64,000 nt of DNA, from contig CAVOMX010000006.1 of NCBI GenBank assembly GCA_963697165.1, forward strand, positions 5,206 through 69,205, read 5' to 3'. Source of the stretch: Candidatus Bathyarchaeota archaeon (GTDB lineage Archaea > Thermoproteota > Bathyarchaeia > Bathyarchaeales > Bathyarchaeaceae). Position 1 is the first letter of the stretch. Each line of letters starts with the position of its first letter. The notes beneath the pieces were generated by a model. The model saw only the letters and a list, made by a program, of their open reading frames with translations. It was not told the DNA's origin and ran no database searches. Shown here one piece after another: positions 1,088-40,305 of the stretch. Position numbers and translations under genes: made by a program.

Positions 1088-3715
1088 ATGGAAATTCTAA
1101 AAAATAAAACAAAATTGACCGCAATATTCGTAATAGTTCTTTTGACAGCATCTACTTTTATGCTAATGGCAAATCCACTACAAGCTCAGGATGATCATGG
1201 AGGAACTCCAGCGCAGACAGGAATGGCAGGTAGTGTGGTCGGATCCGCACCAGCAAACGCAAACATCACATGGTACTTTGACCCCCAAGCACGTCTTGCT
1301 TTCACTCCTAACCCTGTAGGTGTAAACCAGATATTCACAATTAACTTATGGATTACACCACCACCAAGTGCAGAACGCTACATGAAAGACTACCAAGTAG
1401 AAATCACAAAACCTGATGGCACATCAAACACAGTAACAATCGATTCATATGTAGCCGACGGAACAGCATGGTTCCCTTACCTAGCCGACCAAGTAGGAGA
1501 ATGGAATTTACAATTCTTCTTCCAGGGACAATACAACCCAGCAGGATTTTACAGTGACGGAGAATGGCGAACAGAAGAATTCCAAGGCTCAATGTGGTAC
1601 GACGGAGACTACTACAGACCCACCCAAACTGCAGTACAAACACTTACCGTACAAGAAGAATTCGTGTACTCTTGGCCACTTATTGACCTACCAACCGACT
1701 ATTGGACCCGTCCAATATCGCTGGAACACAGAGAATGGGCAGCAATCGCAGGCAACTATCCATGGAATGAACAGGAAACAAACTCTGAATGGAGCGGTGA
1801 TCCCGACTGGTATGGTCCCTACGTCACGGCACCAAACACTTCACACGTTGTCTGGAAACGACAACAAGACATAGCAGGTATTATAGGTGGAGAAGCTGGT
1901 GTATACGGTGATCTTGCTAGTGTAGATACTCCTAATGTAATCTATTTGGGACGATGCTACGATCAGGTCTACCGTCCTATAGTAGGCGAAACAGCCAGAT
2001 GCTATAATCTACGCACAGGAGAAATCTACTACGATATACCCGTCTCAGAAGGTGGAATCACACCGATGTGGATTGCCTACGATAAGCCAGCAGACACTGC
2101 AGTTCCTGGCGCAGGCGCGGCCCGCGCAGTCACAGCCACACTTATTGCAGTAGATAGCACTGCTAACCCAACTGAACTGTATAAGATCAATCCATTCTCT
2201 GGGATAGTAAGCAGCTATGACCTAACAGCCGCTGGCGGACCTGGACGAATACTGGCCTTCAGAAACGATTACTTCCTAAGCGTACGAGATTCAAGTGACA
2301 GCGTTGTTGATCCTTACATGATGTCTCATTTCTGGAACCGCACAAGCATCCAAGATAATGGATATCCAACTTACCTCTATAACTGGACAGTTATCCCTAA
2401 CACCAACAACTTCGTCAGCAGACTAAATAGCAACATAACCTTCAGACTATGTCCAAGCTTCAGAGGCTCAGCATATCCAGAAAGCTCTAAATGGAACTGG
2501 TATGGACGAATGGGTACTGCCGACTTGGATTCAGGTTACACTGTAATCACAAGACGATTCTTTGATAACGCAGTTTGGGGCGGAAATGCATAGGTGTAAG
2601 CCTATATACTGGTGAGGTACTATGGGAAAGATACTTCGATAAATGCACCATACAGCCCATCGAACAACAGTCGCTGAAGATGGAGTCGCAGTTATCTGCT
2701 TTAACCAAGGAGAAGTCGTGGGACTTGACATGGCAACAGGCGCAATAAAATGGACAAACAATGGAAACTCTTATCCATTCGGTGGATTCTGGGGATACGA
2801 CGAAGCCGCAGCTTACGGCATGGCATACTTCTGGTCATACGATGGAGTTCAAGCCTTTAACTTACAGGACGGAACTCTAACATGGCACTACAATGATCCA
2901 GCAATACCCTTCGAAACAACATACTATGGCACAACAGGCGTAGAAGCTTACTCCTTTAACGGAAATGGTGTTGTTGCTGATGGAAAAGTTTTCACACGAA
3001 ACAGCGAGCACACAGCTACTGCACCATATACAAGAGGTTGGAGTCTTCACTGTCTAGATGCCTATACTGGTGAAAAGATATGGAAGATTGCAGCACCAAT
3101 GAATCCTGGTGCAGCAGCAGACGGTTACCTAACAGCAGGCAACAGTTATGATGGATACCTATATGTCTTCGGCAAGGGCAAGAGTGAGACCACTGTTTCA
3201 GCTCCTAATGTTGCAGTACCAAAAGGAACTGCAATGATGATAACTGGATCAGTTTTGGACATATCTCCTGCTCAGAAAGGCACTCCATGTGTATCTGATG
3301 CATCTATGGACACTCAGATGAACTTCTTACACATGGTAAGACCAGTAGATGGAATCTATCACAACGAAACGATCACCGGCGTTCCAGTAATGCTAACAGC
3401 TATCGGAACAGACGGCACTTATGTCGAAATTGGCACAACCACAACAGACGGATACTATGGCGACTTTGCATCATGCGTGGACACCAGAAAAGGAAGGAAC
3501 ATACAGAATTCTCGCCCAATTTGTTGGATCCGAATCTTATGGTAGCTCAGGAGCAGCAGTTGGAGTTGTAGTCGGTCCAGCAGCATCACCAGGAGGCACC
3601 AATAGAACCAGAACCCACTCCATTGATCAGCACCGAAGTAGCTATCGCAATAGGTGTGATTGCAGTCGCAATCATAGCCGCAGTCGGATACTTAGTACTA
3701 CGAAAACGAAAATAA
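1088..3715 (+). CDS. Secreted PQQ-like beta-propeller surface protein with C-terminal TM anchor (frameshifted near 2590, 3480, 3600)
   Basis: Signal peptide, LPTDYWTRP, repeated LDAYTGE-type blades, terminal TM + RKRK; ORFs 1088-2593, 2643-3545 and 3421 onward join into one gene; paralog at 25878. Confidence 0.8.
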
Positions 3716-4186
3716 ATCCCAAAATAATCTTCCATCCCCTTTTTTTTGGGGGGGAGATCCCTTTTTTATGTATACATAAACATGTTTGAAGAACAAATAT
3801 GAAATTAGTTTTTTATATCGGAATCGGAACAGATAGAGTAAACAATAGTATATTCTGTTTTGTTTGAAGATTAATTAATGCTTTAAAGAAAAGGTAAAAG
3901 TGGTTTAGTATTATATCGTCCTGATTTCTGTTTGGTCTATTGCATACTAGAAGATCAAGTTTCAAGATAAGGAAAAAACTCGCTATTAAAAGGAGTGCGC
4001 GGTTTTCAAACATATGCATATTCTGTTTAAAATTTTTTTCTATATTTTTCTCTAAATTTTGGCAGCATTAATCTCTTCCTAACTGAGACTTCTTTTTAGA
4101 ACCGAAGAATATTTAGTGAAACAACCACACACAAGAGAAAGCAAGAACAATATGGATGCATCTATTCATTGGCGAAGGTTTTCAAA

Positions 4187-14107: not shown

Positions 14108-14784
14108 CTATCTCATACGCTCTGATAAATGCACATGAAGACCTGCCGAAATAAGTAAAGAATAGTTTTTGTTACTTTTCTTTGCTTCTACTTTGAAATG
14201 TTTTTGGAAAACTTGATAGATTTCTTCTGGATTTTCCAGTATAAAGATGCCGTCCATGGCAGCCAGCTTTTTGACATGTTCAACATCTTCTTTTCTTACA
14301 CGTATTTTCATTTCGCTCCCGTCGGGAAGCTGCGTAACGGTTACTCCTTCTTTGTAGTCACAGGGCATTATATAGACTGGAACAAAGGCTTTCAGAGCCA
14401 TTATCGCAGAGTTACAGTTAGTAAAGTGTCCGATATTCCATTTGCGAGTTTTGCAACTGTATTAGATGTAGCCGGAGCAATCAACAAAAATTCGATTTTT
14501 CCACTCTGAAGCTGAACCGCAAGGGTTGGTATATTAGAGTTAATTTCAACCCGACTTTTGTCAAATTCTTCCTGCAGCTCTTTAAAAAGATGATAATATT
14601 TTATAACCAAGTCTCCTGCCTTGGAAAGGTAAACTGTAATTCTGAAGTCATCTTGGTGTTGGTTTTTTATTTGCTTCATGACATCAAATACTTCAAGAAG
14701 ACGGTCTCCACTTCCTGTGATTCCCCAAGCAACTCTCTTCTTCTTTTGTTGCTTTTTTTCTCTTTCCACGTTTCCAGCAGCCAT
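14108..14784 (-). CDS. afpA: Archaeoflavoprotein AfpA (frameshift near 14410)
   Basis: VAWGITGSGD, APATSNTVAK; the second ORF continues PVYIMPCD..RVRKEDVE. Confidence 0.8.
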
Positions 14785-14791: not shown

Positions 14792-15394
14792 TCACTTTAA
14801 CTCTTGCTTTTTTATCTCAATTCTATTCATCGCATCAGCGAATCTTTTGAGGGTTTTTTTTAAACTTCTAAAACCTTCCATGTCCTCTTTTACGCCTTCT
14901 AGTGAATCTTTTGACCAGAAGTTTGCTCCCAAGTTTGCTCCAAAAGCACCACCACTTATAGGTATCATCCCATTTAGGACGTAAAATGTATGGATTTGCT
15001 GGATTGCCAGTTCCTGTCCTCCAATTCTGTCTCCTCCAACAGTTATTGCTGCACCTATTTTGTATTTCAAGACATTGATGTCCGTAGCTAAAAGTGCTCT
15101 ACATCTATCTAAAATTGCTTTTGTTTGGGCGCTCATTCCCCCATTGTAGACAGGAGTGGCAAAAATTATCCCATCGGCGTCTTTTAATAGACTGTAAACG
15201 GTGTTCATATCATCCTGTATTATGCATTCTTTATGTTTCAAGCAATGGTCACAGTGTGTGCAGAATCCGATTTTTTTGTTTCTAACTGTGAAAAACTCAG
15301 TTTTGAAGCCCATCGTTTCCAGTGTGTTCAGGGCTTCTTTTAGAACATGTTCTGTTGCACCTTTTCTAGGGCTTCCGCATATGCCAACAATCAT
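14792..15394 (-). CDS. Iron-sulfur flavoprotein (multimeric flavodoxin family)
   Basis: GSPRKG, CTHCDHC..C and ATPVY motifs. Confidence 0.9.
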   Translation of the reverse strand: MIVGICGSPRKGATEHVLKEALNTLETMGFKTEFFTVRNKKIGFCTHCDHCLKHKECIIQDDMNTVYSLLKDADGIIFATPVYNGGMSAQTKAILDRCRALLATDINVLKYKIGAAITVGGDRIGGQELAIQQIHTFYVLNGMIPISGGAFGANLGANFWSKDSLEGVKEDMEGFRSLKKTLKRFADAMNRIEIKKQELK

Positions 15395-15618
15395 TGAGGT
15401 TCATCAGTTTAATATTCACTAAACTCAATAAATGTTACTAAGAAGTGGTAAATTGCATTTTAAACATAATGTAGATTTTTCCCTCTTTCTATCTTCCCTT
15501 GTGTAGGCTTCCTTTTGTAGTGCAAAGAATATATAAGAATGCAAAATAAGCCTTTACTATTTTTATAATGCATTCTGAATCGTTGAATTTAGACCACATA
15601 GACAGACGTGAATTTTTT

Positions 15619-15652
15619 TGGTAAAATTTTAATCCCAATCCCAAACCCAAAC
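15619..15652. repeat. Degenerate GGGTTAAA-W-TTTAACCC palindrome with CCCAAA tail
   Basis: TGGTAAAATTTTAATCCCAATCCCAAACCCAAAC. Confidence 0.55.
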
Positions 15653-15879
15653 TCGAGGGTCCCAAAGTATCTGATGAGCTCGTGTTTCCCATGAATTTGT
15701 TACTTTTGGTCATCTGTTATGTGAAATAGGTTACATTTTTAGTCACTAGTTATTATTTTGCAAAGATTATGGTTTTTTCATAATGAATAGTATCATTTTG
15801 TGTAACCAAATACGCGTAATTAGGCGAGATTAGAAAAATTTATTTAAAGCGATCAAAATATATATTATATCTGAATTTA

Positions 15880-16713
15880 TTGGAGGTTTTGAAAATAAAT
15901 AAAATCAAAGCAACAACTTTCTGTATGATGATGGTGTGTAGTCTATTTTTGGCATCAATAACTGGAATAGTATTGGCTCAGAAAGCAGGATACACATTAG
16001 AACATTATAGGATGGAAACCATACCAACTATCGATGGAACCTGGACTACCTCTTTTGAATGGGCAGATGCAAATGAAAAACAGCTAGACGGCGAGATTGA
16101 AGCTATTTTCAGATCTAAATATGATTTTGAACTTATTACCAGTGCCATAATAAATCATTATTTCCTTATCGAGGTTTTCGGTGATACAACCGACGATTCA
16201 GGCGATTATTTACAAATATGTATTGCTGCAGCGAATCAGGTTGGTGGCGTTCCAACTGGAGGCACTACTCCTCAGTCAGATTGTACAAGATTTGATTATG
16301 TAGGACACAGTAATAGTGGTTTTGCGTTTTACAGAGGTGATGGCTCAGCATGGGTCGAAAGTTCAGCTTACAGTTGGGGACCTGACGTGCAAATAGTTGA
16401 TTCCTTTGGCACGTCTCCTCTATCTAATACTCCTCACTTGATTATCGAGGTTAAGATAGCACGGGAGGCCTTTAGTATAAATCCTGAATTTTGGATTAGA
16501 GTAGCAACATACGATCAAAGCAATTCTGCTGAGGGAGTCCAAGCCTGGCCAGAAGGTTCTAGAGATAATCCGAACGATTGGGGATTAGTAGATACGGTCA
16601 ATGAGACTATTCCAGAATTTCCAGCATGGATTATATTACCAATGTTCGTAATGGCAACTTTAGTAATCATAATCGGTAGAAAAAGACTGACAAAAAGTGG
16701 AACACTGACTTAG
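15880..16713 (+). CDS. Secreted protein with PEF-CTERM sorting signal
   Basis: Signal peptide; C-terminal IPEFP + TM + RKR. Confidence 0.8.
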   Translation: MEVLKINKIKATTFCMMMVCSLFLASITGIVLAQKAGYTLEHYRMETIPTIDGTWTTSFEWADANEKQLDGEIEAIFRSKYDFELITSAIINHYFLIEVFGDTTDDSGDYLQICIAAANQVGGVPTGGTTPQSDCTRFDYVGHSNSGFAFYRGDGSAWVESSAYSWGPDVQIVDSFGTSPLSNTPHLIIEVKIAREAFSINPEFWIRVATYDQSNSAEGVQAWPEGSRDNPNDWGLVDTVNETIPEFPAWIILPMFVMATLVIIIGRKRLTKSGTLT

Positions 16714-16744
16714 ATTTATGGCAACGGCTATTCATTCCCTGATT

Positions 16745-16820
16745 GTGATATCACCCGCGGTTCTTCCGCAAAACTTCCCCTTTTTTTAAGGGCTAAAATT
16801 GAACCCCAAACCCAAACCCA
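16745..16820 (+). repeat. Composite repeat: GTGATATCAC palindrome, CGCAA, C/T tract, then the GGGTTAAA palindrome with tail
   Basis: GTGATATCACCC..CGCAAAACTTCCCCTTTTTTTAAGGGCTAAAATTGAACCCCAAACCCAAACCC. Confidence 0.7.
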
Positions 16821-16920
16821 ATTACGGTTCCATACATTAACTTAGGGTCGTTAACAGAAATAAGTTTTAGTTATCCTTGAAATAGAAACTCATAAGATTC
16901 AGTGACTGGAAGTTTAGGTA

Positions 16921-17812
16921 GTGTTGAATGTAAGAAGGCTCTACTTAGTCGTCATCATGTTGCTGATTATATTTCCATCTTGTGTGGTTCTTGCTTCTTT
17001 CAAGACAGGAGCACAGAACAGAATACTCCATAGATTTTAGAGGATACACGTGGAACCATTCAACAATAAGCGTCAGCATACTTCCACAAGAGAATGAGAC
17101 ATGGTGGGAACCGTCCTATCTCAATGCTACGCTTCACGCAATAGCCCAGTGGAACGATGCAATCCAAGAATTCACATCTAATCACGCCAACTTTTCGTAC
17201 CTTTCAAATCTCCATCTTGTTCCAACAATATCTTCTGAAGAAGTTTCTGACTTCGACATTTACGTCCAGTGGAACTGCGAGTGCGAAAGCGACGCATTGA
17301 TAGGACAATCTCACGCGACAGTTCAATCGTCATGTATCATCACCAATAGCAGGGTTAGCCTAACGGCAAAAGCCCCAAGCGGTCACGTTATGACAGAAGT
17401 CGATATGCAAAACATTGTTGTCCACGAAATAGGGCACACACTTGGGTTATCTCACTCCAACCATTTTAACGATGTCATGTACGCCTCTGTTGACTATCGA
17501 GAAACTGTTAAACCGGTTTCCTCGCTTGATATCTATGCTCTCTCCCAAATTTTCGAGTGGATGACCAATTCTACACAGTTCAGTTCTACAATTAAGTGCC
17601 CTCAAGAATCGGTATTAACTTTGCCGCCAAGCATCAGTTACGTTCACTTCAAGATAAATGCTGAAAATCTTCCAGTCTCTTCTCCTCAGAACCTAATTGA
17701 AGATGTCCTCGGATTATTTTCACGTCCAGAAAGCTTTGCATTTATCATATTTATAGTGACCCTGATTGCCGCTACGGCGATAATCCTAAAGAAACGAAAG
17801 AAGCCAGAATAA
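16921..17812 (+). CDS. Membrane-anchored matrixin-family (M10) zinc metalloprotease (probable frameshift near 17000)
   Basis: HEIGHTLGLSH + Met-turn DVMY; C-terminal TM + KKRKK; signal peptide lies in an upstream frame. Confidence 0.85.
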
Positions 17813-17841
17813 TTTTCGGGATCACTTAACACGCGGTTTTT

Positions 17842-17860
17842 GGGGTTAAATTTTAACCCC
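17842..17860. repeat. Palindrome site (perfect arms)
   Basis: GGGGTTAAA T TTTAACCCC. Confidence 0.85.
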
Positions 17861-18099
17861 CCCAAACCCAAGGCTAACGCTTGATAATGAAAAATGAAAT
17901 AGCGTCAGCATATGATAGAAAGCAGTGATCTGTTCAGGAATATTACACTAACCTGATTTAATGCAGATTCCCACTAACGAATTGTTGCGCGCGCCGCGCG
18001 TGTACAGCAACAGAAATGTTTATTATGTATTACGACGTAATATTTAGATTGGGGAAGTTTAAGTTAAGGTGTTACTTAAAGCCCTGATCTGATGTATAA

Positions 18100-18519
18100 A
18101 TGAACTGGTTAATAATTACGTTGGACATCATGTTTGCTTTGGTTGCCGCGGTTTTAGGCATTCTAGGTCATGGAACTTTCAAATCTATTAAACATCTTGA
18201 CGTAGGAAAGTCTTTTTGGATCCCCATTTTTGTATCAGGTATTCTTTTCGTATTTGGGTCAGTTGTAAGAATTTTTCACGAATTTGCAGTTGAGTACAGT
18301 TGGGTAGCAATGACTTATACCGACGAGTTAATCAGAATAAGTTGGCTTCTTGCGATCACAATTCTCTTCGGTTCCATCTATAACTACTCCAAAAAGGTAA
18401 AAATAATTATTAAAGCAACAACACCACAGGCACAAAACGAGGCGGAATTGACAGGATTAAAAAAGCAGACACACGATCTCCTAAAACAAATCGAAAAACT
18501 AAAAGCCGAACAAAAATAG
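18100..18519 (+). CDS. Hypothetical 3-TM membrane protein with coiled-coil tail
   Basis: Three hydrophobic segments, charged heptad-like C-terminus. Confidence 0.65.
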   Translation: MNWLIITLDIMFALVAAVLGILGHGTFKSIKHLDVGKSFWIPIFVSGILFVFGSVVRIFHEFAVEYSWVAMTYTDELIRISWLLAITILFGSIYNYSKKVKIIIKATTPQAQNEAELTGLKKQTHDLLKQIEKLKAEQK

Positions 18520-18834
18520 ACATTTTGACTGGATATTTTTTTCTGTCTTTTTCCGAATAGGGTTACAACCGAAGCACTTAGAAGAATAATGCCTATTGTA
18601 TTCTAAAATGCTCGTTCACAGGCAGAAAATATACTGCTTATTTCAGTCAAAGACACATCCCAAAAAGAATGCGTAGCTAATGTATTCACGTACATTCCCC
18701 ACCCGAGGTAGGTAAAAGATCAGGAAAAAAATGTGAGAAAGATGCGAACATAACATTACATCTAGTTTGTTAGAAGTCTATGTGTTTTCTTATTGTTTTT
18801 CGTTTACACTTTTCTTGAGATCTGGCTTATTGAT

Positions 18835-20253
18835 TTACCAATATTCGGTTTTCCATTTTTCGAGGCTCTCATCTAAAGTGGATGACCATCTTTTTGTCGT
18901 TTTAATGCTGGATGGAGGATTTTGCTTAAGCCATTCCCAAAAAACATTCCATTCTTGAGTAGTCATATCTATTGTTCCAGTCTGAGTTTTCCACAGCTGC
19001 AATTGACCTTCTAAAGGTTCATTCCAATCTTCCTTTTGCCATCCTGGAGGATTTTGCTTTAGCCACATCCAGAACACGATCCAATCTTCGGCAGTCATTT
19101 CATTAGATGGAGGAGGTGGAGGTGGCAAGGATTCTAAGTTTAACTCAAAGAATGCTGGTTTAGGAATTCCACGTCTTTTACATATGTTATATTTTTCATC
19201 TTGACTATTATGAACCCACACCCAACTAAAGCACCTGTTCACTCCCAGATTTTGAAATATGTGAATAGTTGACTCGTAATAAATCCTTTGCACTTCAGTC
19301 TTCCTGTTGTTGTTCCCAAATTCACTCACCCAAAATGGGTACCCAGCATTTTTTGTATCTTCTACTGCCTGAACAAAATCATCCCAAGTTGTACCTTGCC
19401 AAGTTACACTAGATCCAAAATCTTGTGGATCCGCAAATGTGTTTATGCTCATAAAATCCAGCGATTGCATGACACGATCAAAATCAACAAAGGTGCTATA
19501 GTCACTACCAGTACGAGTGTGCCATGGACTATAGGGCAATGTAAATTTGATGGTGATAGGTCGATTATCACGGAGGCGAATAACATCACTTCCTTGCTCT
19601 ATGAGAACATGAAACTCTTCTCTTTCGATCGCGAGCTGACTAGAACTATAGCTCCCAGAATGCATCGGTTCATTAAGCAAGGACCAACTATTAATGGCTG
19701 AACTGTACCTGAATTCATCAACCAAATATCCAATCATCTCCAAAAAGTATCCTTTAGTCGTTTCATCGCGCACAATAGCTATGTAACGTTGATTACCCGT
19801 CTGAGGATCTATACTCCAACTGGGAACTCCCGTAATGGTGTCCATCCAATATTGAAAGAAGCTCATACAGACACCAATCTCATATTGTTCTGCCTTTGCA
19901 AGTACACGTTTAACATTGTTTATGTTTAACTCGTTGTATATAGGCGGATTAACACCAGTCTGAAATGCTGACCAAATAAGATTTATAATAATAGAATCCA
20001 CATTGTTTTCTTTGAACAATTGAAAATCTTGCTCTATTTCACCATCTGAAATTGAATAAGACCAATCATATGGCCCCTCATAGTTTACACCAGTTGACAT
20101 ATCAGGCGTTTCTTGAGAGTACACAGAAGGAAAAGAAAACATTCCAATCATCAGTGCAAACAGAATCAAGGTTTTAATCCAGTTATGCACATCAATACGC
20201 TTTACTGATCTTACTTTTTCAAGGAAATAAATATTGGAAGATACATTCTTCAA
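18835..20253 (-). CDS. Secreted clan GH-A (GH5-like) glycoside hydrolase with Trp-rich C-terminal repeats
   Basis: WSLLNEP acid/base and WVSEFG nucleophile motifs; signal peptide; poly-Pro linker. Confidence 0.8.
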   Translation of the reverse strand: MKNVSSNIYFLEKVRSVKRIDVHNWIKTLILFALMIGMFSFPSVYSQETPDMSTGVNYEGPYDWSYSISDGEIEQDFQLFKENNVDSIIINLIWSAFQTGVNPPIYNELNINNVKRVLAKAEQYEIGVCMSFFQYWMDTITGVPSWSIDPQTGNQRYIAIVRDETTKGYFLEMIGYLVDEFRYSSAINSWSLLNEPMHSGSYSSSQLAIEREEFHVLIEQGSDVIRLRDNRPITIKFTLPYSPWHTRTGSDYSTFVDFDRVMQSLDFMSINTFADPQDFGSSVTWQGTTWDDFVQAVEDTKNAGYPFWVSEFGNNNRKTEVQRIYYESTIHIFQNLGVNRCFSWVWVHNSQDEKYNICKRRGIPKPAFFELNLESLPPPPPPSNEMTAEDWIVFWMWLKQNPPGWQKEDWNEPLEGQLQLWKTQTGTIDMTTQEWNVFWEWLKQNPPSSIKTTKRWSSTLDESLEKWKTEYW

Positions 20254-20365
20254 ATGACCATTTCCTTTTCATTTTATTCTAGTTAGTGTACATATTCGGT
20301 TTTGCATATTAGAGTTACTCAGTTCCAATGTTTGGGATAAGGTTTGGGAGTGTTTGGGGTTTGGG

Positions 20366-20382
20366 GTGTTAAAATTTAACCC
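20366..20382. repeat. Palindrome site with left GGGTTT tail
   Basis: TTTGGGGTTTGGGGTGTTAAAATTTAACCC. Confidence 0.75.
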
Positions 20383-20469
20383 TCAAAATCAAACGTATTG
20401 ATGTGTACGTCTACAAATTTTCTCAAGTTCTTGCATCTGTTTCGTGTTTGTATAACTTCTTTTTTAAGG

Positions 20470-21301
20470 TCACTGTTTTAGTTTCTTTCTGTAGGTAATA
20501 ACTCCCAAAGTTGCTGTCACAAATAATGGAAGAATTATCCATGAGGGAAACTCTGGAATAATTGGTGCTTCTGTTTGAATCAGCAATGCATAGTCTGTAA
20601 TTTCATATGCGAGGGAGCGCATTTCATTTTCTAATTCGGGTATGGCATCAACTGTGTTTAATGTGAATGAAGTGGTCTGACCAGCCTGTAAAGAATCTGG
20701 AGTCAAATAATCAGAGAAGCCTGTTGCGATTACTGATCCTGTAGAATTGTAGAACGTGCCTACAACCCAGAGTTTGCCTGCGGCTTGATTTCCTGTGTTC
20801 TGTACGCGTCCCGTGATTGTATATATTCCATTTGAATCGATGTGTGGAGAATCGTTTATGATTTCTAAGTCGGGATACTGATAATTATCAGTCTCATTAC
20901 TGATGATAACTTCGAACTCAACATTGTTCAGGTTACCTGAAATCCAATTGAAATCTTCTGAAATGCTAGTGTCAGTGAAAAAATACATGACAAAAGGCAC
21001 TTTCTGTTGTGGAAGAATTTCACTAGAATATGGTACCGAGGTGCTCCATGCCTGATCTTCACCATCAGTTGAATTCAAAAATCCACGCAGAGCTATATAT
21101 TCAATATTATTGGGACCTACGTTTTTGTACTTCACCGACAACAATAAAACTGTTGATTGAGGAAATGTACCAACTATAGTCTAGAACTTCAACGTTTTCT
21201 GATTGACTGATTACACTTGGAACTAAATTTACAAACAAAGAAATCATAACAACAAACATAAGAGAAATAACTACAGTTCTTTTCAACAGTTTTAACTCCA
21301 T
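20470..21301 (-). CDS. Secreted FxLYD-like domain protein with PEF-CTERM (frameshift near 21125)
   Basis: Two GEVQN/GRVQN Ig-like repeats; IPEFP + TM; ORFs 21107-21301 and 20470-21144 join. Confidence 0.75.
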
Positions 21302-22073
21302 TCTTTAAACTCTCCAACATTTTGTGACTTAAAAATTTTGTTCAGAATTTTGTTAAAATATTAATTTGTTAAAAAAACTAATTTTATCCCCCAAATATCG
21401 TGGCTACTTATGCAACGATTCGCTACTTACCATATTCGACTATGAACATATGGGAGATATGTTATTCTATACGAGATGTTTTATGAGCGGAATTAATTTG
21501 TATCCCATTTTTATAGAAACAAGTTACATTTCAGGTGACTAATTATTATAATAAACTAAACATGTTGCTAAAGCATGTTGAAGGTAACATATAAAGTGAC
21601 TAACGTCCCAAAACATCCTAATATCTAACCCATATTTTTTACCTAACAATGTGCTACTGTTATCTATAGAGCAAATGAACTGATCCTGTAGATGTTATGA
21701 CCGCATGGAAAAGCAGTCTTTGTTATATATGTAACAAAAAAATTGAAATTATCAAAAATAGGTGATGTGTAGATTTGATGGAGTGCCCCATTAGGTGCAG
21801 TCACCATATGTTCCCTAATCACTTCAACTTTTGTCCATATTGTGGATCTAAATTGGATAATGTTTACGACAAGAAAGAGTATAAAAGTCAATAATAATGA
21901 AAACTAACGAATAACTGAATGAATATACGGGTCCACAAAAGACTAAATGTATTATTCCCTGATTTTTAGGGACCCTTTAGGTCAGTTATCGCGAAAATGG
22001 TTGTTGCTAGGTTTTTGTTTCCCTAACTACTAGGGACAACACCTAAAAGCAAGAGATAACCGACTTAGCCTTT

Positions 22074-22928
22074 ATGGAAAAGAAACAAGTTGCACTTTTA
22101 GCCGTAATTTTCGGCATCGCTATTTTTGGAATAAAACTAGTAGCCTATTCTATTTCCAATTCTGTAGCTCTGCTTTCTGATGCTCTAGAATCCATTGTTA
22201 ACATAGCCGCTTCAGGACTAATGCTGTTCTCCGTTTGTGTTTCAGGAAGAGCCCCAGACAGTAGCCACAAGTATGGTCACGAAAAAGTCGAAGACCTGTC
22301 CAGCCTTGTGGAGGGCATCTTCATAATCCTTGCTGCTATTCTCATTATAAATGCCGCCGCGGGACGCTTATTTGAATCCGTTGAATTGTTCAAACTCGAT
22401 CTGGCCATTGGAATCTCAATGTTCGCTACGGCCCTGAATGCTGGGCTTTCTTGGTTATTAATCAAAACTGCTAAGAGCTGCGACTCAGCGGCTCTTGAGG
22501 GCGACGCGAAACACCTATTCTCTGACGTAATCTCAACTGTGGGTGTATGGATAGGTCTATTTGTTGCCCAATTAACGGGTTGGGCCTTCTTGGATTCCTT
22601 CTTGGCATTTGTGGTTGCAGCCTTGGTTATGAGAGTGGGTGTGGGGCTTATTTTGAAGTCTTCAAATCGTTTAATGGATCAATCATGCATAGATGAAGAG
22701 AAGAAGATATTGGAAGTAATTGGTAGGCATTCATTCCATTTTATTGACTGTCATAATTTGAGAACCCGCCGACATGGGAATCAAGTTTTTGCTGAGTTAC
22801 ATCTTTCAGTTGATGGATCATTGAGTGTTAAAGATGCTCATGATCTTACGGATCATTTAGAGGATGAACTAAATGAAGAGCAGCCAAACGTGCACATGAC
22901 AATTCATGTTGAGCCACCCAAAAAGTAG
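22074..22928 (+). CDS. Cation diffusion facilitator transporter
   Basis: SVALLSDALES, HKYGHEK, HLFSD and IHVEP motifs. Confidence 0.93.
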   Translation: MEKKQVALLAVIFGIAIFGIKLVAYSISNSVALLSDALESIVNIAASGLMLFSVCVSGRAPDSSHKYGHEKVEDLSSLVEGIFIILAAILIINAAAGRLFESVELFKLDLAIGISMFATALNAGLSWLLIKTAKSCDSAALEGDAKHLFSDVISTVGVWIGLFVAQLTGWAFLDSFLAFVVAALVMRVGVGLILKSSNRLMDQSCIDEEKKILEVIGRHSFHFIDCHNLRTRRHGNQVFAELHLSVDGSLSVKDAHDLTDHLEDELNEEQPNVHMTIHVEPPKK

Positions 22929-23139
22929 CATGTGGAAAAAACCCTTTCAGTTGTTGAAATACTTTTTTCATAATGTCTCTTATCTTTTAGCGCGTATTGT
23001 ATATTAATATAAGCAATATTAGGTGAACAAGAAGCTGCAAAAGCATTGTGGAACAAAAAGAAGGCCAATCAGAACCCCCAGTGATCTGTTGGAGTCATCT
23101 CCAACAAACCTCCTTTTCTCTTTTCAATCTGGACTTATA

Positions 23140-24479: not shown

Positions 24480-24746
24480 GCTTTATCTTTCTCCTTTTGG
24501 TTACAGAAACTGCGTACACTATTTCATTCTTTGAAGTTTTTTATTTTCAGTAAACTAATTCGTTATTTTTAAGTTTATAATTAACTTTAACTGCTCTTTT
24601 TCAGAGCTATTTAGAGTAATATAAATAAGTTTACTTATAAAGAAAATTGTGAAAATTAAGATTTACAAAGAATCTTTTCAATATCCACGGCATTTCACCA
24701 ATTTTTTGATGTTAACCTTTTCTATGGAAACGTCTCCGCGTATAGA

Positions 24747-25229
24747 TCATGAAATTTTATCAGTATCTGGTTCAAATAGTTGTATATTGTTGTATTCTTC
24801 TTTAAGAGGATAAGACGTGTCATCAGTTAATGAAATTTCAATTTTTTCCTCGTAAGGCATTAATCTAATTTTATCAATCACTCCCTTGATTTCTTTTATA
24901 TCTCTAAATGCTACCATAGCTAACATATCAAATGCTCCAATAATTTCTGATATCAAGAACACGTTTGGGATCTGATTAAGCGCTTCTGCAATCTTTTTTT
25001 TATCGTATTCTTTGGAAGCCTTCAAAAACAAAAATGCTTTCCCAGTATACCCAATTTTCGAAAGATCAATTAATGTAGTCATTCCAAAAATAATGCCATC
25101 TTTTTTCATTTTTTCATATCTTTTTTGGACGGTTATTGATGATATTCCAATTTCTTTTCCAATTTTTAGAAATGATTTGCTCCCATTCTTTTTTAGTTTG
25201 TTTATAATGTCCAGATCAATTCTGTCCAA
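24747..25229 (-). CDS. Lrp/AsnC family regulator
   Basis: MDRIDLDII HTH domain + RAM domain (GAFD). Confidence 0.88.
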   Translation of the reverse strand: MDRIDLDIINKLKKNGSKSFLKIGKEIGISSITVQKRYEKMKKDGIIFGMTTLIDLSKIGYTGKAFLFLKASKEYDKKKIAEALNQIPNVFLISEIIGAFDMLAMVAFRDIKEIKGVIDKIRLMPYEEKIEISLTDDTSYPLKEEYNNIQLFEPDTDKIS

Positions 25230-25234
25230 AAAAT

Positions 25235-25693
25235 TCAGGCTCCTATTTTTAAGTCGACATTACTATAATTCATATACAGTTCATTCCAGATATTCACATC
25301 AATATTCTTCACGCTTCTCTGATTCCTTATTAAAGATTTTAATCTGTCCAAATCACTGATGTTTTTTGCAAAGACAAATAGGCAAAGATCATATTTACCG
25401 ATTGTTCGATCAATTCCAGCTACTTGTGCATGTTTTTTGAATATTTTGATGATTTTTTGCTCTTGTTTAGGATCTAAATTAACCCCAATTAAAACAATCA
25501 AAGGGTATTTAAAAAAAGCCATGTTTAAGTTTAAAACTGGTTTAACTATTAAACCACTTTTCTTCATTAGCACAATTCTATTTTTTATTGCTGTTGACGA
25601 TAATTTGCAGTCTTTTGCTATATCAACCAGTTTTGAGCGTCCGTCTTTTAATAATGTCCGAAGGATTTTGGCATCAGTTTCATCGATTTTCAT
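25235..25693 (-). CDS. Lrp/AsnC family regulator
   Basis: MKIDETDAKIL..DGR HTH, GKYD; start taken at ATG 25693. Confidence 0.88.
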   Translation of the reverse strand: MKIDETDAKILRTLLKDGRSKLVDIAKDCKLSSTAIKNRIVLMKKSGLIVKPVLNLNMAFFKYPLIVLIGVNLDPKQEQKIIKIFKKHAQVAGIDRTIGKYDLCLFVFAKNISDLDRLKSLIRNQRSVKNIDVNIWNELYMNYSNVDLKIGA

Positions 25694-25877
25694 TGTCAAT
25701 ACTTCCGTTAGGTTTTTTATTTGTAGGCATATAACCCTTTGCTTTAGACTAGCGTTAAAAAAATCAATTATAATCAACATTATAATTGTTTTTTTACATT
25801 TTTTTAATCTATTTTGCACAAACATTAAATACCGTTTGAATCCATCTGGTTAAATATAAAAATTAAGAGATGAAAAA

Positions 25878-28545
25878 ATGGAAATTCTAAAAAGTAAAAC
25901 AAAATTGACAGCAATATTCATTATGGTTCTTTTAACAACTTCTGCAATTGCTTTAATGGCTACTCCCATCAACGCACAAGATGATCATGGAGAAACCGTC
26001 TTCGAAAATCAGGGCTCAATACCCCTACCCAGTGGAGTCACTCCTGATCTGACCCTTACATCGATAAGCCACCTTAGCTTTAGTCCTACAACCGTAGGTG
26101 TTAACCAAGAATTCATCATAAACATTTGGCAACAACCACCAATCCATAACAGTCGAAAACTTACAGATTACAAAGTAACAATAACAAAACCTAGTGGAAC
26201 CGAAAATGAAGTTGTCCTAGATTCCTATCTAGCAGACGGAACAGCATGGTTCCCATACATAGCCGACGAAGTAGGCACATGGACAATCAAATTCGACTTC
26301 CCAGGCGGCTACTTCCCAGCAGGAACCTACTCACGAGTACGCGAAGGACAAGCTACCGTATTCACAGAATTTGAAGAATCAGTCTATTACACACCTAGCA
26401 GTGACGGACCCTACGAACTCACCGTTATAGACGACATAGTTTATTCTTGGCCAGACGCTCCGCTTCCAACCGACTACTGGACAAGACCCGTATCAGCTTA
26501 CAACCGAGAATGGTGGTCTATTCTAGGAAACTGGCCTTGGACTGGTGTCGGAGGAGGAGAATATTGGCCAGAAATGTATCCGAAACGAACATCTACGCCA
26601 GCAACTACCGGTTTACCCCCTATGTTCAAGGACCCGAAAGCGCACACGTAGTATGGAAACAATATCAGTACGCAGGTGGTCTCATCGGAGGCGACTTGGG
26701 AACAATAAGCTATTGGCCAGCCGGTGGATTCACCCGATCTCCAGAGCTACCAGACTTAATCTTTGCAGGAAGGGTCTACCAAGGAGATCTTAACAAAGTC
26801 ATCGATGGTGTACCAAGAAGTGACGTATGGCAATGCTATGATCTGCGAACCGGCGAAATCATCTGGGAACAGTACCCCGTCACACAGGAACCAACTTACA
26901 TTACTTACACTGAACGCTCAAATGTCGCTACACCTGGCGAAACGGCTCGTAAATCCGGTTTGAGCGTAGATCTTCTCTACGTAGGCCAAGGTCGATTACA
27001 TAAAATATGACCCATGGACAGGAGCATGTGATACTTGAACGTTTCAATTGCACCCTTAAGCTACAGGTGCTCTATACGCTGATCCATGGCTATTAAGCAC
27101 ACAGAACATGGGCGGCGGAGACTATCGTTTAATCAACTGGACCGTAGGAAGAGATGACAATGGAGTGACCCGAATGATAGTGCAAAACAACATTACATGG
27201 CCTTTCAGTAACTTAGGCGATGTACAAGATTTCGAAGCCATGGAATAGCTCTTGACGCATCAGGAATATCTTCCGAATCTACAGGTGTAAGTGACAATTA
27301 TCGACTGGTAGCTGCTAGCCTGACAACAGGACAGGTGCTATGGAATAAGACAACAGACCTTGGATTTGGCTTTTTCAGTGGAAGCACGGATGTTGCTGAC
27401 CACGGAAAATAGGCTGTTCGTTTCAATGACGGAAAATGGCATTGTTGGGATTTACGTACAGGAGATTACCTATGGGAAAGTGAGGAGTCAAGTTGGCCAT
27501 GGTCAACCTTCGGTTGCTATAACGTCGAATCAGCATACGGCTTACTATACTCTAACCAATACGACGGTGTCGTTGCCCTTGATTGGGACACTGGAGAAGT
27601 AGCTTGGTGGTACCAATCACCCAACTGAATTCGCGTATGAAACACCATACCAGAGCAGATACCCATTCTTCAGCGATTCATATGTTGCTGACGGAAAGTA
27701 CTACACATTTAGTAACGAGCATTCAATCAGCCAACCTCTATTCAGAGGACTAAAGAGCATCTGCCTTGACGCTAGAACAGGCGAAGAAATATGGAAATGG
27801 ACGAATTTTGCCCAGCCAGTTGCTATCGCTGACGGCTATTTAATCCAACACGGCATGTATGACGGGTATCAATATGTTATCGGCAAGGGTGAAAGTGAAA
27901 CAACAGTCACAGCACCAAAGACTAGTATACCTAGAGGAACCGCCCTGACGATTGAAGGCACAGTTCTTGACCTGTCTCCTGCTCAACCAGGTACTCCATG
28001 TGTATCCCAAGAATCAATGGGAACCCAAATGGACTACTTACACATGCAGATGCCAATCGACAGCGTTTGGCACAATACAACGATAACTGGTGTTCCAGTG
28101 ACCTTAACAGCAATGGGTCCAACAGGCAATTACATTGACATTGGCACAGTTACAACTGAGGGCTATTATGGCACCTTTGGTCTTTCATGGACTCCAACAG
28201 CGGAAGGAACTTACAAGATACTCGCAACTTTTGCAGGAGACGAATCTTATGGCAGCTCAGGCGCAGCAACATATGTAACAGTCGGACCAGCACGCTTCAA
28301 GCTGGTGGACCAATAGAACCTGAGCCATCACCTTCACCAGAGCCTTCACCATCGCCATCACCTTCACCAGAGCCTTCACCATCGCCATCACCTTCACCAG
28401 AACCTTCACCATCGAACCATCACCTTCACCAGAACCAACACCTGAAACACCATTGATCACCACTGAAGTAGCAATCATCGCAGCAGTCGCAATCGCCAGC
28501 ATAATTGGCGTAGTCAGCTTCTGGGCACTCCGAAAACGAAAATAA
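25878..28545 (+). CDS. Second PQQ-like beta-propeller surface protein (many frameshifts)
   Basis: N-terminus nearly identical to the 1088 gene; LPTDYWTRP, CYDLRTGE, GYQYVIGKG; ends in TM + RKRK. Confidence 0.78.
28322..28442 (+). repeat. Coding tandem repeat: Pro/Ser linker (EPSPSPSPSP)n
   Basis: 30-nt unit GAGCCTTCACCATCGCCATCACCTTCACCA repeated. Confidence 0.85.
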
Positions 28546-28751
28546 ACCCAAATTTTCCCTCCCCTTTTTTTGGGAGTAAAAAATTACAGAAATGAAGGGA
28601 CTGAAAAGGCTCGACCACCGGAAGTGTGAAACATGATTCTCCTCTATTGTTGTTGGAATCGTTTCATGCACTCATCAACAAACGCCTGTGTGAGAGCCTC
28701 AGATATCCCTTCTTCCTTTAGTTTACCCATAATTGTCTCTTTTTTTTAAAA

Positions 28752-30867: not shown

Positions 30868-31326
30868 CCTCAGCTAAAAGCGTAATATATTGCATATTGT
30901 TTCTCTGCATCTTTTCCCGTTTTTTCGCCCTTAAACATTCCTGAATAAATCTGCTGACATTTAAGAGCAAACAAAGCGAAAAGGAGCGCGAACATTACCT
31001 CACGTCTGGTCAGGTTTGGTAGGCGGAGTGGTCTCCACCGAAAAACATACTGAAAGAGCTTGAAGACTGTTGTCTACAAAAGTTAACTGATCTAATAGAA
31101 CCGCCCAGAACTGTTGGGTGCGCCTCAAGATCGCACAAAGTACCTCTCTGCCATCTCACCACCGCGTTATGCCCGTGCAGAAACATTGATTTTTTCTTAA
31201 AACTCCTTACTGGATTCTTCCCTGAAACAGTCTCAGAAGTGCATTTCAAAGCATAAGTATTTGAGAAACGATTTGCCTCCTATTTTTCGACTTACGATTT
31301 TAATAAATTCTGGAAGTAGTTTTGGA

Positions 31327-32184
31327 ATGAATGAAATGAACGCTAAAGTCTGTATTGTCACTGGTGGCAACTCGGGAATCGGAAAAGAAACAGCTTTAGC
31401 CTTGGCAAAAATGGGTGCAACGGTTGTTCTAGTCGTACGTGACCAAGAACGCGGCGAAAAGGCTAAAGCGGAAATAGTAAGCCAGAGTGGAAACAAGTCT
31501 GTCAATGTCATGATATGTGACCTTTCGTTAATGAATTCAATAAGGCGTTTCGCAGGGGAATTTAAATTGAAATATGGTCGACTGGACGTGTTGATAAACA
31601 ATGCAGGAGCGGTTTTCAACAAGCGAGAGGTCACATCTGAAGGTTTTGAACGAACCCTTGCCGTAAACTATCTGGGGTCATTTCTTCTAACGCACGAGTT
31701 GTTGGGTTTGTTGAAAGCCAGCGTTCCTTCTAGAGTAATCAACTTGAGTTCTGGACTTGCTAAGAATGGTAAGATAGACCTTGACGATCTGCAGAGCGAG
31801 AGGAATTATGGCGGAATGAAGGTTTACTCCAAGGCAAAGTTGATGGTGATGATGTTTACTTACCAACTGGCAAGGCGGCTTGAAGGTACTGGCGTGACGG
31901 TGAACGTGCTAATGCCGGGTTTTGTCGCTACAAATTTGGGGAAAAACAGCGGTAGCCTCCGTTCATCGATACTGTTCAAAATGGTTCGTCCAATGCAAAT
32001 AAGCCCGAAGAAGGGAGCAGAAACGTCCGTATACCTAGCTTCATCAGATGAGATCAAGATTACAACGGGAATGTGCTTTGCCAAGAAAAAGGAAACCACG
32101 ACCTGCCCGATATCATACGACGAGGAACTCCAGGAACGGTTATGGGATAAAACCGCGAGGATGCTTGGTTTAGCTTCAGAATAA
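31327..32184 (+). CDS. Short-chain dehydrogenase/reductase (retinol dehydrogenase-like)
   Basis: TGGNSGIG, NNAG and YSKAK motifs. Confidence 0.93.
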   Translation: MNEMNAKVCIVTGGNSGIGKETALALAKMGATVVLVVRDQERGEKAKAEIVSQSGNKSVNVMICDLSLMNSIRRFAGEFKLKYGRLDVLINNAGAVFNKREVTSEGFERTLAVNYLGSFLLTHELLGLLKASVPSRVINLSSGLAKNGKIDLDDLQSERNYGGMKVYSKAKLMVMMFTYQLARRLEGTGVTVNVLMPGFVATNLGKNSGSLRSSILFKMVRPMQISPKKGAETSVYLASSDEIKITTGMCFAKKKETTTCPISYDEELQERLWDKTARMLGLASE

Positions 32185-32395
32185 CCACGAAAGCTCTAAG
32201 AACAGCAGCAGCCAGATTCATGACTTAGAAAATTCAAACCACCCATAAAACGGGTGCAAATACAAACAAAATATCAAATACTAATAATACCAAATAGAAC
32301 TGAATCTAGCAGGTGTCTCGTTTGCCTAAGAAAATGTTATGGCCTGAATTATTGTTCAGCTTTTTCCAATCGATAAGAAAAAATTTTGGCAACAG

Positions 32396-33350
32396 TTGCT
32401 ATCAAGATTCCTCTTTCTTTTCCTGCTTTGGTTCTCAGGTTTAGTGGCATATGCAGTAAATGGATTAACAACCACTTATTTGTTTGCGGTAAACATTTAT
32501 GTTCGTATTTTCGGAATGCTTTTTCTCATATTAATTGGATCATATTATGTGCAATACACTCTAAGGAAAATTATTCAGAATTTTAGACCAATGCTAAAAC
32601 TGGATGCTTCACAATATCAGAAGTTTTCTGCAAAACTGGAACGATACACATACAGTTTTCTCCCTTGCTTTATTATCGCTATCATTTTTTCCCTCTTTAG
32701 AGGTGCCTTTTCCAATTCCAAACAGTATTAGCTGAAGGTTTAGAGTTATATGTCATATGGAACTCTTTTTTGACTCTTTTGCATCACTTTTGGTGGGAAC
32801 TGTAATCTGGATGTTTGCGTCAATTTGGCTAACAATCTTTCTTATTTCAAGACAACAATTGATTGTGCCGTTATCAAAGGAAACAATAACCCGATTCCGT
32901 GAGCTAAGCATGTTTGCGTTATTGTTTGGGTTATTCTATTTTATTGGTATTTCAATAGGGAATATTTCCTTTCTTACTAATGTTCAAACATTGACTCTAT
33001 ATGACATTGTTATATCTCAACATCTTATTTTTGTCATAATAGGTATAGTGGGAATTCTATTTCCCTTTTTTAATCTTCACAATACTCTACTCAATATGAA
33101 AAATGAAGAACTAACAAGGATCTCTAAAGAATCTGAACATCTGCTTCAGACTTTAGATGAAGCATTAGAAAAAAAAGATAACAACCAAACACTTTCAGTT
33201 TCAGCTCGTCTTTTCAGCCTGCAACTCAAAGAAAAACAGGTAAAGGGAGCACAAGAATGTCCTATCGATGTAAGTTTTCTCTCAAAACTGATTGTTATAG
33301 GTCTTATACCCATATTAAGCAGGATTATGGCAATGTTACTTATCTCCTAA
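32396..33350 (+). CDS. Hypothetical polytopic membrane protein (frameshifted)
   Basis: Adjacent hydrophobic ORFs 32396-32731 and 32757-33350. Confidence 0.55.
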
Positions 33351-33374
33351 GAAATCTAAGACTATATGTGTATG

Positions 33375-33393
33375 AGGGTTAAATTTTAACCCT
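33375..33393. repeat. Palindrome site (perfect arms)
   Basis: AGGGTTAAA T TTTAACCCT. Confidence 0.85.
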
Positions 33394-33522
33394 TAACAAA
33401 TGTTAAGTAATCTGTTATCCCCAAATTTTTAACGGTGATACTAACCTTGAAGTCTAGCGCGCGCAAATTTTATAACTTTAAGCCATCCAAAAGGGTTTGA
33501 GGAAAAGGTAGGTCTACAAATA

Positions 33523-34005
33523 ATGTGCCCAATAAACCAAAATTTACCATCTGAAATTAGCCAACGCGTTCGTGAAATTATAAATGAGTTAAATAAATAT
33601 GGAATATCTGCCGAAAACGTCGAACCAGATGCCCAATTGAAAGATTTTTGGAATGTTATAGTTGGAGGTTTCGACCTTGAAAATATATCACAAGAATATA
33701 AAAAATCTATTAAAGGTCCCACGTCGAGTGGTTCAGAATCCATAAAAGGAAAAAACCTTCAGGTTAAATATACATTGTTTCAAAACGAGCAAGTTTTACT
33801 ATTGAAAGGGTCCGACCTCAGAAATATGGGAATCACACTAATCAACCCTCAGATTATTCATGGACTGATGAGACCTATGCCAGTTTTCGACTTCTCCAAA
33901 CCGAAATTGGGCTCTGGTTCATATCTGACAGATGAGCCCCTGTCTGAGCCGCAACATACGTATGGTTTCGGCGATGGGAGCCCCTACGAACGAAATTCTG
34001 AGTAA
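33523..34005 (+). CDS. Hypothetical protein
   Basis: 160-aa ORF, no recognised motif. Confidence 0.5.
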   Translation: MCPINQNLPSEISQRVREIINELNKYGISAENVEPDAQLKDFWNVIVGGFDLENISQEYKKSIKGPTSSGSESIKGKNLQVKYTLFQNEQVLLLKGSDLRNMGITLINPQIIHGLMRPMPVFDFSKPKLGSGSYLTDEPLSEPQHTYGFGDGSPYERNSE

Positions 34006-40006: not shown

Positions 40007-40016
40007 TTTTAATCCA

Positions 40017-40268: not shown

Positions 40269-40305
40269 TAAATCACATCTTATATAACTGTTGAACTTCT
40301 ATAAA

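Follow-up and report, generated by a model that had tools for sequence, protein, structure and literature searches.

We analyzed a 64-kb stretch of DNA (hereafter the window) from a Candidatus Bathyarchaeota archaeon together with 18 close loci of related genomes (L001-L018; each ≤21 kb), and found in it 15 copies of a 19-bp palindrome that consists of a 13-bp core, GTTAAA-W-TTTAAC, and G/C clamps. The palindrome is real and non-random, all of its copies are intergenic, and within the window it is confined to variable, low-GC, acquired DNA. Four copies lie in island A (15442-21440), a block that, judging from the comparison with relatives, was acquired and put into the divergent spacer between the genes for an isf-like FMN reductase and a CDF cation efflux transporter, a spacer which, throughout the genus, is a hot spot of changes in gene content. 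We see an even chance that the palindrome is a repeat similar to the bacterial repetitive extragenic palindromes (REP), probably bound by a protein, which belongs to a mobile low-GC gene pool and is located at the joints of acquired modules. An integron-like capture machine is not supported.

Sequence and copy number of the palindrome

The 19-bp sites were fitted to GGGGTTAAA-N-TTTAACCCC, in which 18 positions are specified. Copy 1 of island A (15618-15636, TTGGTAAAATTTTAATCCC, plus strand; 4/18 mismatches) is directly preceded by T7 and has a CCCAAT/CCCAAA tail on its right, ending at 15651, and copy 2 (16789-16807, AGGGCTAAAATTGAACCCC, plus strand; 3/18 mismatches) is also preceded by T7 and has a (CCCAAA) tail reaching 16822. 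Copy 3 (17842-17860, GGGGTTAAATTTTAACCCC, plus strand; T5 before it, tail on the right to 17872) is a perfect palindrome with no mismatches and 9/9 pairs. Copy 4 (20365-20383, GGTGTTAAAATTTAACCCT, minus strand; 2/18 mismatches) is inverted relative to copies 1-3, its TTTGGG-type repeats being placed on the left (20340-20364); copies 3 and 4 constitute inverted repeats with 35-nt arms (86% complementary), which enclose a two-gene unit. A possible fifth, degenerate copy near the right edge of the island (21350-21365, TTGTTAAAATATTAAT) is uncertain, since it was picked up by a loose search only and missed by two stricter searches. The other fitted sites are located at 33375, 39979, 40305, 41715, 43122, 46564, 47104, 47955 and 49204 (island B) and at 55391 and 55811 (island C, which also contains degenerate copies at 56537 and 57151). 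The initial annotation of this DNA, based on the letters alone, had listed the four copies of island A (at 15619, 16790, 17842 and 20366) and further ones at 33375, 55393 and 55812, with degenerate copies near 56537 and 57151, and all of these were recovered.

A 16-mer search allowing ≤3 mismatches yielded 14 matches in the window vs 1.03 expected, a number reached in none of 100 shuffles. With three length variants and ≤2 mismatches, 15 distinct sites were obtained, none of them inside a called open reading frame (ORF), whereas 200 first-order Markov simulations of the window averaged 0.375 sites and never gave more than 3. The palindrome is by far the most frequent dispersed 11-mer family of the window, and it is often flanked by a T-run and, on the opposite side, by CCCAAA-type repeats; the tail sequence CCCAAACCCAAA was found 8 times vs 0.42 expected. 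A search with a 9-mer half-site was unusable, the chance matches being too numerous.

When the 15 copies were pooled, the positions of GTTAAA were retained in 26-30 of the 30 half-sites, and the three outer G positions in 24, 21 and 15. Eight copies have A as the central base and seven have T. A recurrent GGCTAAA variant places C opposite A and thereby breaks the pairing; conservation acts on the sequence of the palindrome rather than on base pairing. The one-sided tails, which the initial annotation regarded as giving a symmetric site its direction, were confirmed, and in many copies the half on the tail side is better conserved than the opposite one, which indicates that the element is directional. 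A link between the central base and the side of the tail was also considered (9 T, 3 A and 2 G in tail-right orientation) and was not significant.

Confinement of the palindrome to acquired islands

The 15 copies and the 2 degenerate ones are distributed among three islands, 4 in A, 9 in B and 4 in C, and none was found in the backbone of the window or in its variable blocks D (24.5-28.7 kb) and E (1.1-4.0 kb). Islands A-C hold 57% of the intergenic bases; under a uniform spread, the probability of all 17 falling inside them is 0.573^17, i.e. approx. 8e-5, and approx. 2e-3 if all five variable blocks are counted (both values are post hoc). The GC content is 0.376 in island A vs 0.40-0.43 in the backbone, 0.378 in island B and 0.343 in island C, and is backbone-like in blocks D (0.40) and E (0.44). 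The palindrome is present in stretches that the relatives do not have, and it thus marks acquired DNA, the horizontally gained part of a Bathyarchaeum-like genome.

Island B (30935-49330) is situated between NTP344 and the CAAX protease gene, whose starts are separated by 247 nt in L007 and by about 1.4 kb in L001-L004; no repeats above chance level were found at its edges.

Island C (52108-57884; 5.8 kb), a classical integrative element, is inserted into the 5′ end of ftr and bordered by a direct repeat (52108-52137 and 57857-57884; 26/28 nt identical) inside the 5′ coding region of this gene. The island is absent from L003, in which ftr and the archaeosortase gene are adjacent. It encodes a Xer-like tyrosine recombinase (52210-52842, minus strand) without about 85 N-terminal residues of the XerA profile, which scored 65.7 bits vs a cut-off of 220 for archaeal XerA and 54.4 vs 265 for the integron integrase (TIGR02249); the same recombinase is found beside ftr in L007. 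This is the sole recombinase of the window, lying 31 kb from island A and having its own attachment (att) repeats in ftr. A comparison of island C with phage records gave no match.

According to the initial annotation, the palindrome belongs to a system collecting cell-surface and polymer-degradation genes. The restriction to such genes did not hold, as motif-bearing blocks also contain genes for ClpB, the TATA-binding protein (TBP), MscS, a radical SAM protein, a TIR protein and a universal stress protein (USP); nor are surface genes tied to the motif, since blocks D and E carry surface proteins without a single copy. As for the latter blocks, 1088-4019 and 24480-28751 are paralogous surface-protein clusters that share segments of 73-81% identity (e.g. 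1067-1206 with 25857-25996, and 3471-3558 with 28181-28268), vary with respect to relatives and lack the palindrome.

The isf/CDF spacer as a hot spot of gene-content change

The proteins of the window were compared with the close loci by tblastn. This revealed a conserved backbone, Fer2_4 - FeoB - DtxR - afpA - isf / CDF - DJ-1 - creatininase / NTP244, continued by o121 - NTP344 / CAAX protease - o65 - p221 - ftr / archaeosortase - MsrB. The isf-like gene, which forms the left flank of island A (14792-15394, minus strand; PF03358 at 1.1e-34), is 72-87% identical in 13 relatives (14 if the partial copy of L004 is counted), and the CDF gene on the right flank (22074-22928, plus strand; PF01545 and PF16916) is 78-86% identical in L001-L016 and L018 and 67% in L017. 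The CDF matches come from Bathyarchaeia genomes, including Ca. Bathyarchaeum species and the complete Ca. B. tardum chromosome.

The two genes are neighbours in 14 relatives, with a gap (isf start to CDF start) ranging from 99 nt to 2.0 kb, vs 6679 nt in the window. In 7 of the 14 the allele is empty: 99 nt in L002 and L003, 104 nt in L009, 105 nt in L015 and L016, 134 nt in L018 and 136 nt in L004. The gap measures 202 nt in L006, 435 nt in L014, 457 nt in L008, 1021 nt in L012, 1615 nt in L001, 1760 nt in L011 and 2013 nt in L005. The alleles of L001, L005, L011 and L012 are filled with different genes, i.e. a periplasmic-binding-type protein (L001), a coiled-coil and a winged-helix protein (L005), membrane proteins (L011) and two small proteins (L012). 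On the left, similarity to relatives ends at 15441, past a box (...AATAAATGTTACTAA) conserved on the isf side. It returns near 21440 in comparison with L008 and, by direct reading of the sequences, near 21592 in comparison with L014; the position of the right edge is therefore given as an approximation.

The five genes of island A are absent from all 18 close loci, save for a 28-residue PEF-CTERM-like match in L001. They are therefore not syntenic core genes of the relatives, as they would be if the initial annotation had mistaken conserved genes for acquired ones, and the interval, for which empty and filled alleles had been foreseen, is a hot spot. A comparison of island A with plasmid records gave no match.

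Several other features of this region were noted. All close relatives share a strongly conserved sequence, GGGCAACACCTAAAAGCAAGAG (22025-22073 in the window; 17 loci, e.g. L002 9950-10000), located approx. 45 nt before the CDF start; it is probably the promoter together with an operator or leader, and no Rfam family matched it. Between the hot spot and CDF there is a small ORF of about 38 aa (approx. 21777-21893) encoding a zinc-ribbon-like protein (MECPIRCSHH..FCPYCG), conserved upstream of CDF in one group of relatives (L008, L011 and L014). Boxes of the type GTTAC-N6-8-GTGACTAA occur in the isf/CDF regulatory region at 15415-15441, 15723-15756, 21516-21549 and 21584-21610. One pair of them (15723-15756 and 21516-21549; 27/34 nt) brackets island A, with a marginal score of 33 vs a maximum of 31 in 100 shuffles, and may represent either operators or a duplication of the att type. 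Downstream of CDF (22929-23139), a secreted-protein gene of approx. 800 nt, conserved between CDF and DJ-1 in L001, L004, L008, L014-L016 and L018, is deleted in the window, leaving approx. 100 nt of each end. Upstream of isf, afpA (14108-14784) is split into two frames (14108-14401 and 14401-14784) with a one-base overlap, and forms a single ORF of 198 aa in L005; either a frameshift or a sequencing error may account for this.

The palindrome in related genomes

A nhmmer profile built from 12 window copies and run on the close loci detected seven sites, one in L001, three in L005, one in L006 and two in L010, all of them in variable intervals or on the flanks of a CDF gene that has moved. In the 14 remaining close loci, nothing scored better than E = 14 (a single weak match in L003). 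In L001, L005 and L006 an orthologous copy is located approx. 90 nt upstream of CDF. In L005, the insert in the creatininase/NTP244 spacer contains two genes with a single site between them, and its edges have none.

Two candidates were rejected. A tail plus half-site found after CDF in L005 was considered as a breakpoint marker; it lies approx. 60 nt past the end of similarity and therefore does not mark the break. Copy 1 of island A was considered as a gene remnant in view of the sequence CCCAATCCCAAT of L005 and L012; there, it is coding sequence (WDWD) of a 116-aa gene that has no relative in the window, and the resemblance is a coincidence.

Relation of the palindrome to genes and transcripts

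Copy 1 is placed between the divergent isf and 15880-16713, 226 and 245 nt from their respective starts, while copies 2, 3 and 4 are found 78 nt past the stop of 15880-16713, 31 nt past that of 16982-17812 and 88 nt past that of 20470-21144 (minus strand). In total, 12 of the 15 copies are located 21-451 nt downstream of a gene stop and three in divergent spacers, and the distance to the next start codon varies between 38 and 535 nt (mostly 100-250). The direction of the tail, which the initial annotation proposed to tabulate against gene direction, follows that of the gene at all four sites of island A but at only 6 of the 11 tailed sites of the window, and it points toward a gene start in 6 of 11. 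The palindrome thus has no fixed relation to genes.

T5-T9 directly precedes the copies at 15618, 16789, 17842 and 40305 (minus strand), the degenerate copies at 56537 and 57151, and the site at 9336 in L005. In 6 cases the element is oriented like the upstream gene, in 4 it is not. RNA folding of seven sites gave z values from −2.1 to +1.0, i.e. structures not more stable than those of shuffled sequences. Rfam produced no match at gathering scores, only two chance-level ones (E about 0.8), and the search for tRNA genes found none.

Possible functions of the palindrome

If it is a REP-like repeat, the palindrome would bind a dimeric protein and act at the DNA level. It would travel with, or spread within, mobile gene modules and would sit at the joints between them, and it is this position that would make blocks of single-gene modules look like "arrays"; breaks and joins would tend to fall at the palindrome or next to it. 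Both the binding of a protein and any role in joining or removing modules are inferences. The 15-bp core, GGTTAAATTTTAACC, is identical to the consensus published for Fis of E. coli, a bending dimer (PMC2018646); the type of sequence would therefore suit a dimeric DNA-bending protein. In the literature searched, the Fis consensus is the sole form in which the motif string turned up, and there is no report of the palindrome or of REP-like repeats in Bathyarchaeia.

Several observations weigh against the REP-like reading. No binding protein of the palindrome was identified, and the copy number is that of 64 kb and of 18 loci of ≤21 kb. The spacers of the backbone are short (median about 100 nt), so that part of the restriction to islands could reflect a lack of room. 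L001, L005 and L006 are alike from CDF up to the palindrome (in two of them including the tail) and unrelated beyond it; in L006, a solo site in the 202-nt spacer resembles an empty platform (the ends of this 103-nt insert are weakly similar by direct reading, a single case). In L010, CDF is found among unrelated housekeeping genes, between two co-oriented copies. Island A contains four gene units with four sites (five with the degenerate one at 21350), and island C is a series of single genes, each followed by a site. These observations on L001, L005, L006 and L010 and on the sites of islands A and C would better fit a crossover site used by a site-specific recombinase acting in trans, comparable to attC/attI or to Xer/dif modules, at which genes would be added, removed and inverted, each stretch from one motif to the next forming a unit; we hold this explanation to be unlikely, though it is the main rival. 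It would also account for a hot spot with empty and differently filled alleles, for the inverted copies 3 and 4 around a two-gene unit, and for the single genes parted by sites near the Xer-like recombinase of island C. Minimal core sites of tyrosine recombinases have short arms around a central region, and the 6-bp G/C-rich arms around a 7-bp A/T centre are similar in design; the A or T at the centre would supply direction. However, islands A and B have no recombinase in or beside them (the Pfam scan of the 78 window ORFs revealed none in 15.4-21.4 kb or its flanks), and that of island C, accounted for by its own att site in ftr, falls well short of the score required of an integron integrase. 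The palindromes lack the length and the irregularity of attC, there is none between the gene for a small membrane protein (TM139) and the GH5-like gene of island A, none at the edges of the L005 creatininase/NTP244 insert, and the half-site after CDF in L005 is displaced by approx. 60 nt from the break in similarity. Blocks D and E vary without the motif, no unit of gene plus motif was seen in two genomes at different places except for CDF in L010, and the tail follows the gene at all sites of island A but at only 6 of 11 tailed sites across the window. A specific form of this explanation, which we rate as somewhat less probable again, is an undescribed archaeal cassette system, in which a Xer-like recombinase encoded elsewhere (e.g. 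on ftr-type elements) would insert, excise and invert single-gene modules at the 19-bp palindromes; such a system would build arrays in hot spots and mobile elements across Bathyarchaeia, each site being oriented by its A-or-T centre and the CCCAAA repeats.

It is improbable that the palindrome acts as a transcription terminator or 3′-end RNA hairpin, with a T-run followed by a stem: the 12 copies past a stop and the T5-T9 directly before several of them fit this idea, but about three quarters of the spacers contain a 3′ end anyway, so that the 12 of 15 matches chance, and the three copies in divergent spacers have no 3′ end to serve. The divided orientations, the hairpins that are no stabler than shuffles, the variants that break pairs and the backbone genes that manage without the palindrome also argue against it. 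We give a similarly low standing to an operator of a transcription factor, or a bidirectional promoter core of the BRE/TATA type (BRE, the TFB recognition element). A symmetric site of 13-19 bp is typical of dimeric regulators, GTTAAA fits the BRE pattern RNWAAW beside a T/A-rich box, and a winged-helix gene lies between two copies in L005; against this, the distances of 38-535 nt to the start codons are too large and too variable for archaeal core promoters or operators, the neighbouring genes have no common function, and the one-sided repeat tails are left unexplained. Finally, a chance or compositional artefact of the A/T-rich spacers (35% GC) is refuted by simulations with a Markov model of the spacers only, in which the mean was 0.14 sites and the maximum 2 (300 simulations) vs the 15 observed.

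Bathyarchaeia are abundant, mostly uncultured archaea of sediments, and little is known about the movement of their accessory genes. In several of their species, the acquired part of the genome can be recognized by one short sequence, which here lies at the border of a hot spot characterized by the turnover of secreted and surface-anchored proteins. As a true recombination site, it would represent a new and very compact form of gene shuffling in archaea; even as a plain REP-like repeat, it provides a practical marker of islands and mobile elements in the fragmentary genomes of this group.

Gene content and other repeats of the islands

The first gene of island A (15880-16713, plus strand) encodes a secreted protein without a Pfam or NCBIfam family, whose C-terminus has a PEF motif, a transmembrane segment and basic residues (...IPEFPAWIILP...GRKRL). 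A similar end, read directly (...IPEFPSWIILP...YRKKL), is present in the product of 20470-21144; we take both to be of the PEF-CTERM type named in the initial annotation, although no PEF-CTERM model matched. The second gene (16982-17812, plus strand) encodes a matrixin-like zinc metalloprotease with the motif HEIGHTLGLSH (Peptidase_M10, PF00413, at 4.9e-10) and a C-terminal membrane anchor, and the matrixin of the initial annotation was thus confirmed. TM139 (18100-18519, plus strand), recognized by reading its sequence, is a small hydrophobic membrane protein with a coiled-coil tail.

The next gene (18835-20253, minus strand) encodes a secreted 472-aa protein resembling glycoside hydrolases of family 5 (GH5; clan GH-A). 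It matched GH5 mannanases weakly (endo-beta-1,4-mannanase 3wh9, E 6.3e-5; BlGH5_18, E 0.011) and no Pfam family at 1e-3, which makes the GH5 label plausible and falls short of demonstrating it. The last gene (20470-21301, minus strand) encodes a protein with a PEF-type C-terminus and the FxLYD domain expected from the initial annotation (NF038353 in 20470-21144, 26.4 bits vs a cut-off of 23). It consists of two overlapping frames, 20470-21144 (224 aa) and 21107-21301 (64 aa); the upstream one resembles a signal peptide, which suggests that the gene is frameshifted or the assembly wrong.

A second repeat family abuts copy 2 of the palindrome (16744-16786, plus strand; GTGATATCACC ... GCAAAACTTCCCC T7). 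Its members are composed of a GGTGATATCACC-like palindrome, a spacer, GCAAAACTYCCC and T6-7. Apart from this one member in island A there are about six in island C (55829-55880, 55935-55980 and 57815-57870 on the minus strand; 56010-56055, 56493-56534 and 57103-57148), and a pattern search gave 5 matches vs 0.22 expected. The family abuts the GTTAAA palindrome in four cases and is also found at the right end of the ftr element; its presence in A and C shows that the islands are rich in small repeats generally.

The cargo of island C includes a TIR/SEFIR protein, USP and YbjQ, and the former upstream region of ftr persists at 57885-58050. A small four-cysteine protein (55558-55770; HGxC.NFDNGTC...ACPHFKAK), with a palindrome on each side of its gene, is also encoded in the isf/CDF hot spot of L012 (9578-9808; 54% identity over 46 residues) and is a candidate mobile-element protein. 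In island B, a 242-nt segment at the start of a PKD-repeat gene is present twice (43466-43707 and 43986-44227), 520 nt apart and 100% identical; the repetition stems either from a recent duplication or from an artefact of assembly.

Comparison with known systems

The sites of integron cassettes, attC, measure roughly 55-140 nt; they are imperfect inverted repeats that fold, with extrahelical bases and with paired core sites of the pattern GTTRRRY. The islands share with integrons and with clusters of attC sites lacking integrases (CALINs) the runs of accessory genes, mostly single and unrelated, with a repeated palindromic site after each, and an array content that differs between relatives (a gap of 99 nt to 2.0 kb vs 6.7 kb); moreover, the core of the palindrome contains GTTAAAT, which fits GTTRRRY. 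Cassette arrays and CALINs have been reported in Archaea as well (PMC9668308), and in the literature searched the terms Bathyarchaeota and integron were not found together. Judged by size and anatomy, however, the sites described here are 19-bp near-perfect palindromes, with conservation limited to approx. 19 bp and the tail; neither IntI nor an integrase-adjacent attI is present, the orientation of the sites is mixed (copy 4 being inverted with respect to copies 1-3), and some adjacent genes have no site between them. By the features tested, the system does not belong to the integron family. With no recombinase in or next to island A and sites unlike attC, the "system that collects" genes proposed in the initial annotation was not borne out, and its interpretation as a whole is partly supported.

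The dif (pdif) modules of Acinetobacter plasmids, and other elements that exploit Xer, are delimited by 28-bp sites (11-6-11) that bind XerC/XerD. Small modules bounded by short core sites in either orientation and in varied contexts, with the recombinase encoded elsewhere, are common to both systems; the palindrome is shorter and has a tail, and Xer binding is putative here, although the anatomy GGGGTT-AAAWTTT-AACCCC would be compatible with two arms around a 6-8-bp centre. The dRS3 repeats and Neisseria intergenic mosaic elements (NIMEs), with the "minimal mobile elements" of this genus, are similar in that short inverted repeats occur in spacers and strain-specific genes are found between conserved ones; exchange in Neisseria is thought to proceed via homologous recombination of the flanks after transformation. 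They differ in sequence and belong to another domain of life. Compared with miniature inverted-repeat transposable elements (MITEs), the palindrome element is 19-40 nt long and has no internal segment. The likeness to Fis sites concerns the type of site only: Fis is bacterial, the likeness is not evidence of a Fis homologue, and no Fis-type helix-turn-helix was found among the Pfam hits of the 78 window ORFs.

The bacterial REP and bacterial interspersed mosaic elements (BIMEs) are palindromes of 20-40 nt, strictly extragenic, present in many copies in either orientation and sometimes clustered, for which roles in protein binding, termination and recombination have been proposed; the two articles searched mention archaea only in passing (PMC2817692, PMC3733652). 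The palindrome differs from them in having no GTAG or CGTC tag, its flanks being CCCAAA and, on the opposite side, a T-run or AAG, in its A/T-rich centre in place of a G/C-rich stem, in its one-sided CCCAAA repeats, in its confinement to acquired islands and in its archaeal host, and no family match to REP-associated tyrosine transposases (RAYT; Y1 transposases of the IS200/IS605 type) was found among the 78 window ORFs. It resembles them as a short extragenic palindrome with 15 copies in 64 kb and none in ORFs.

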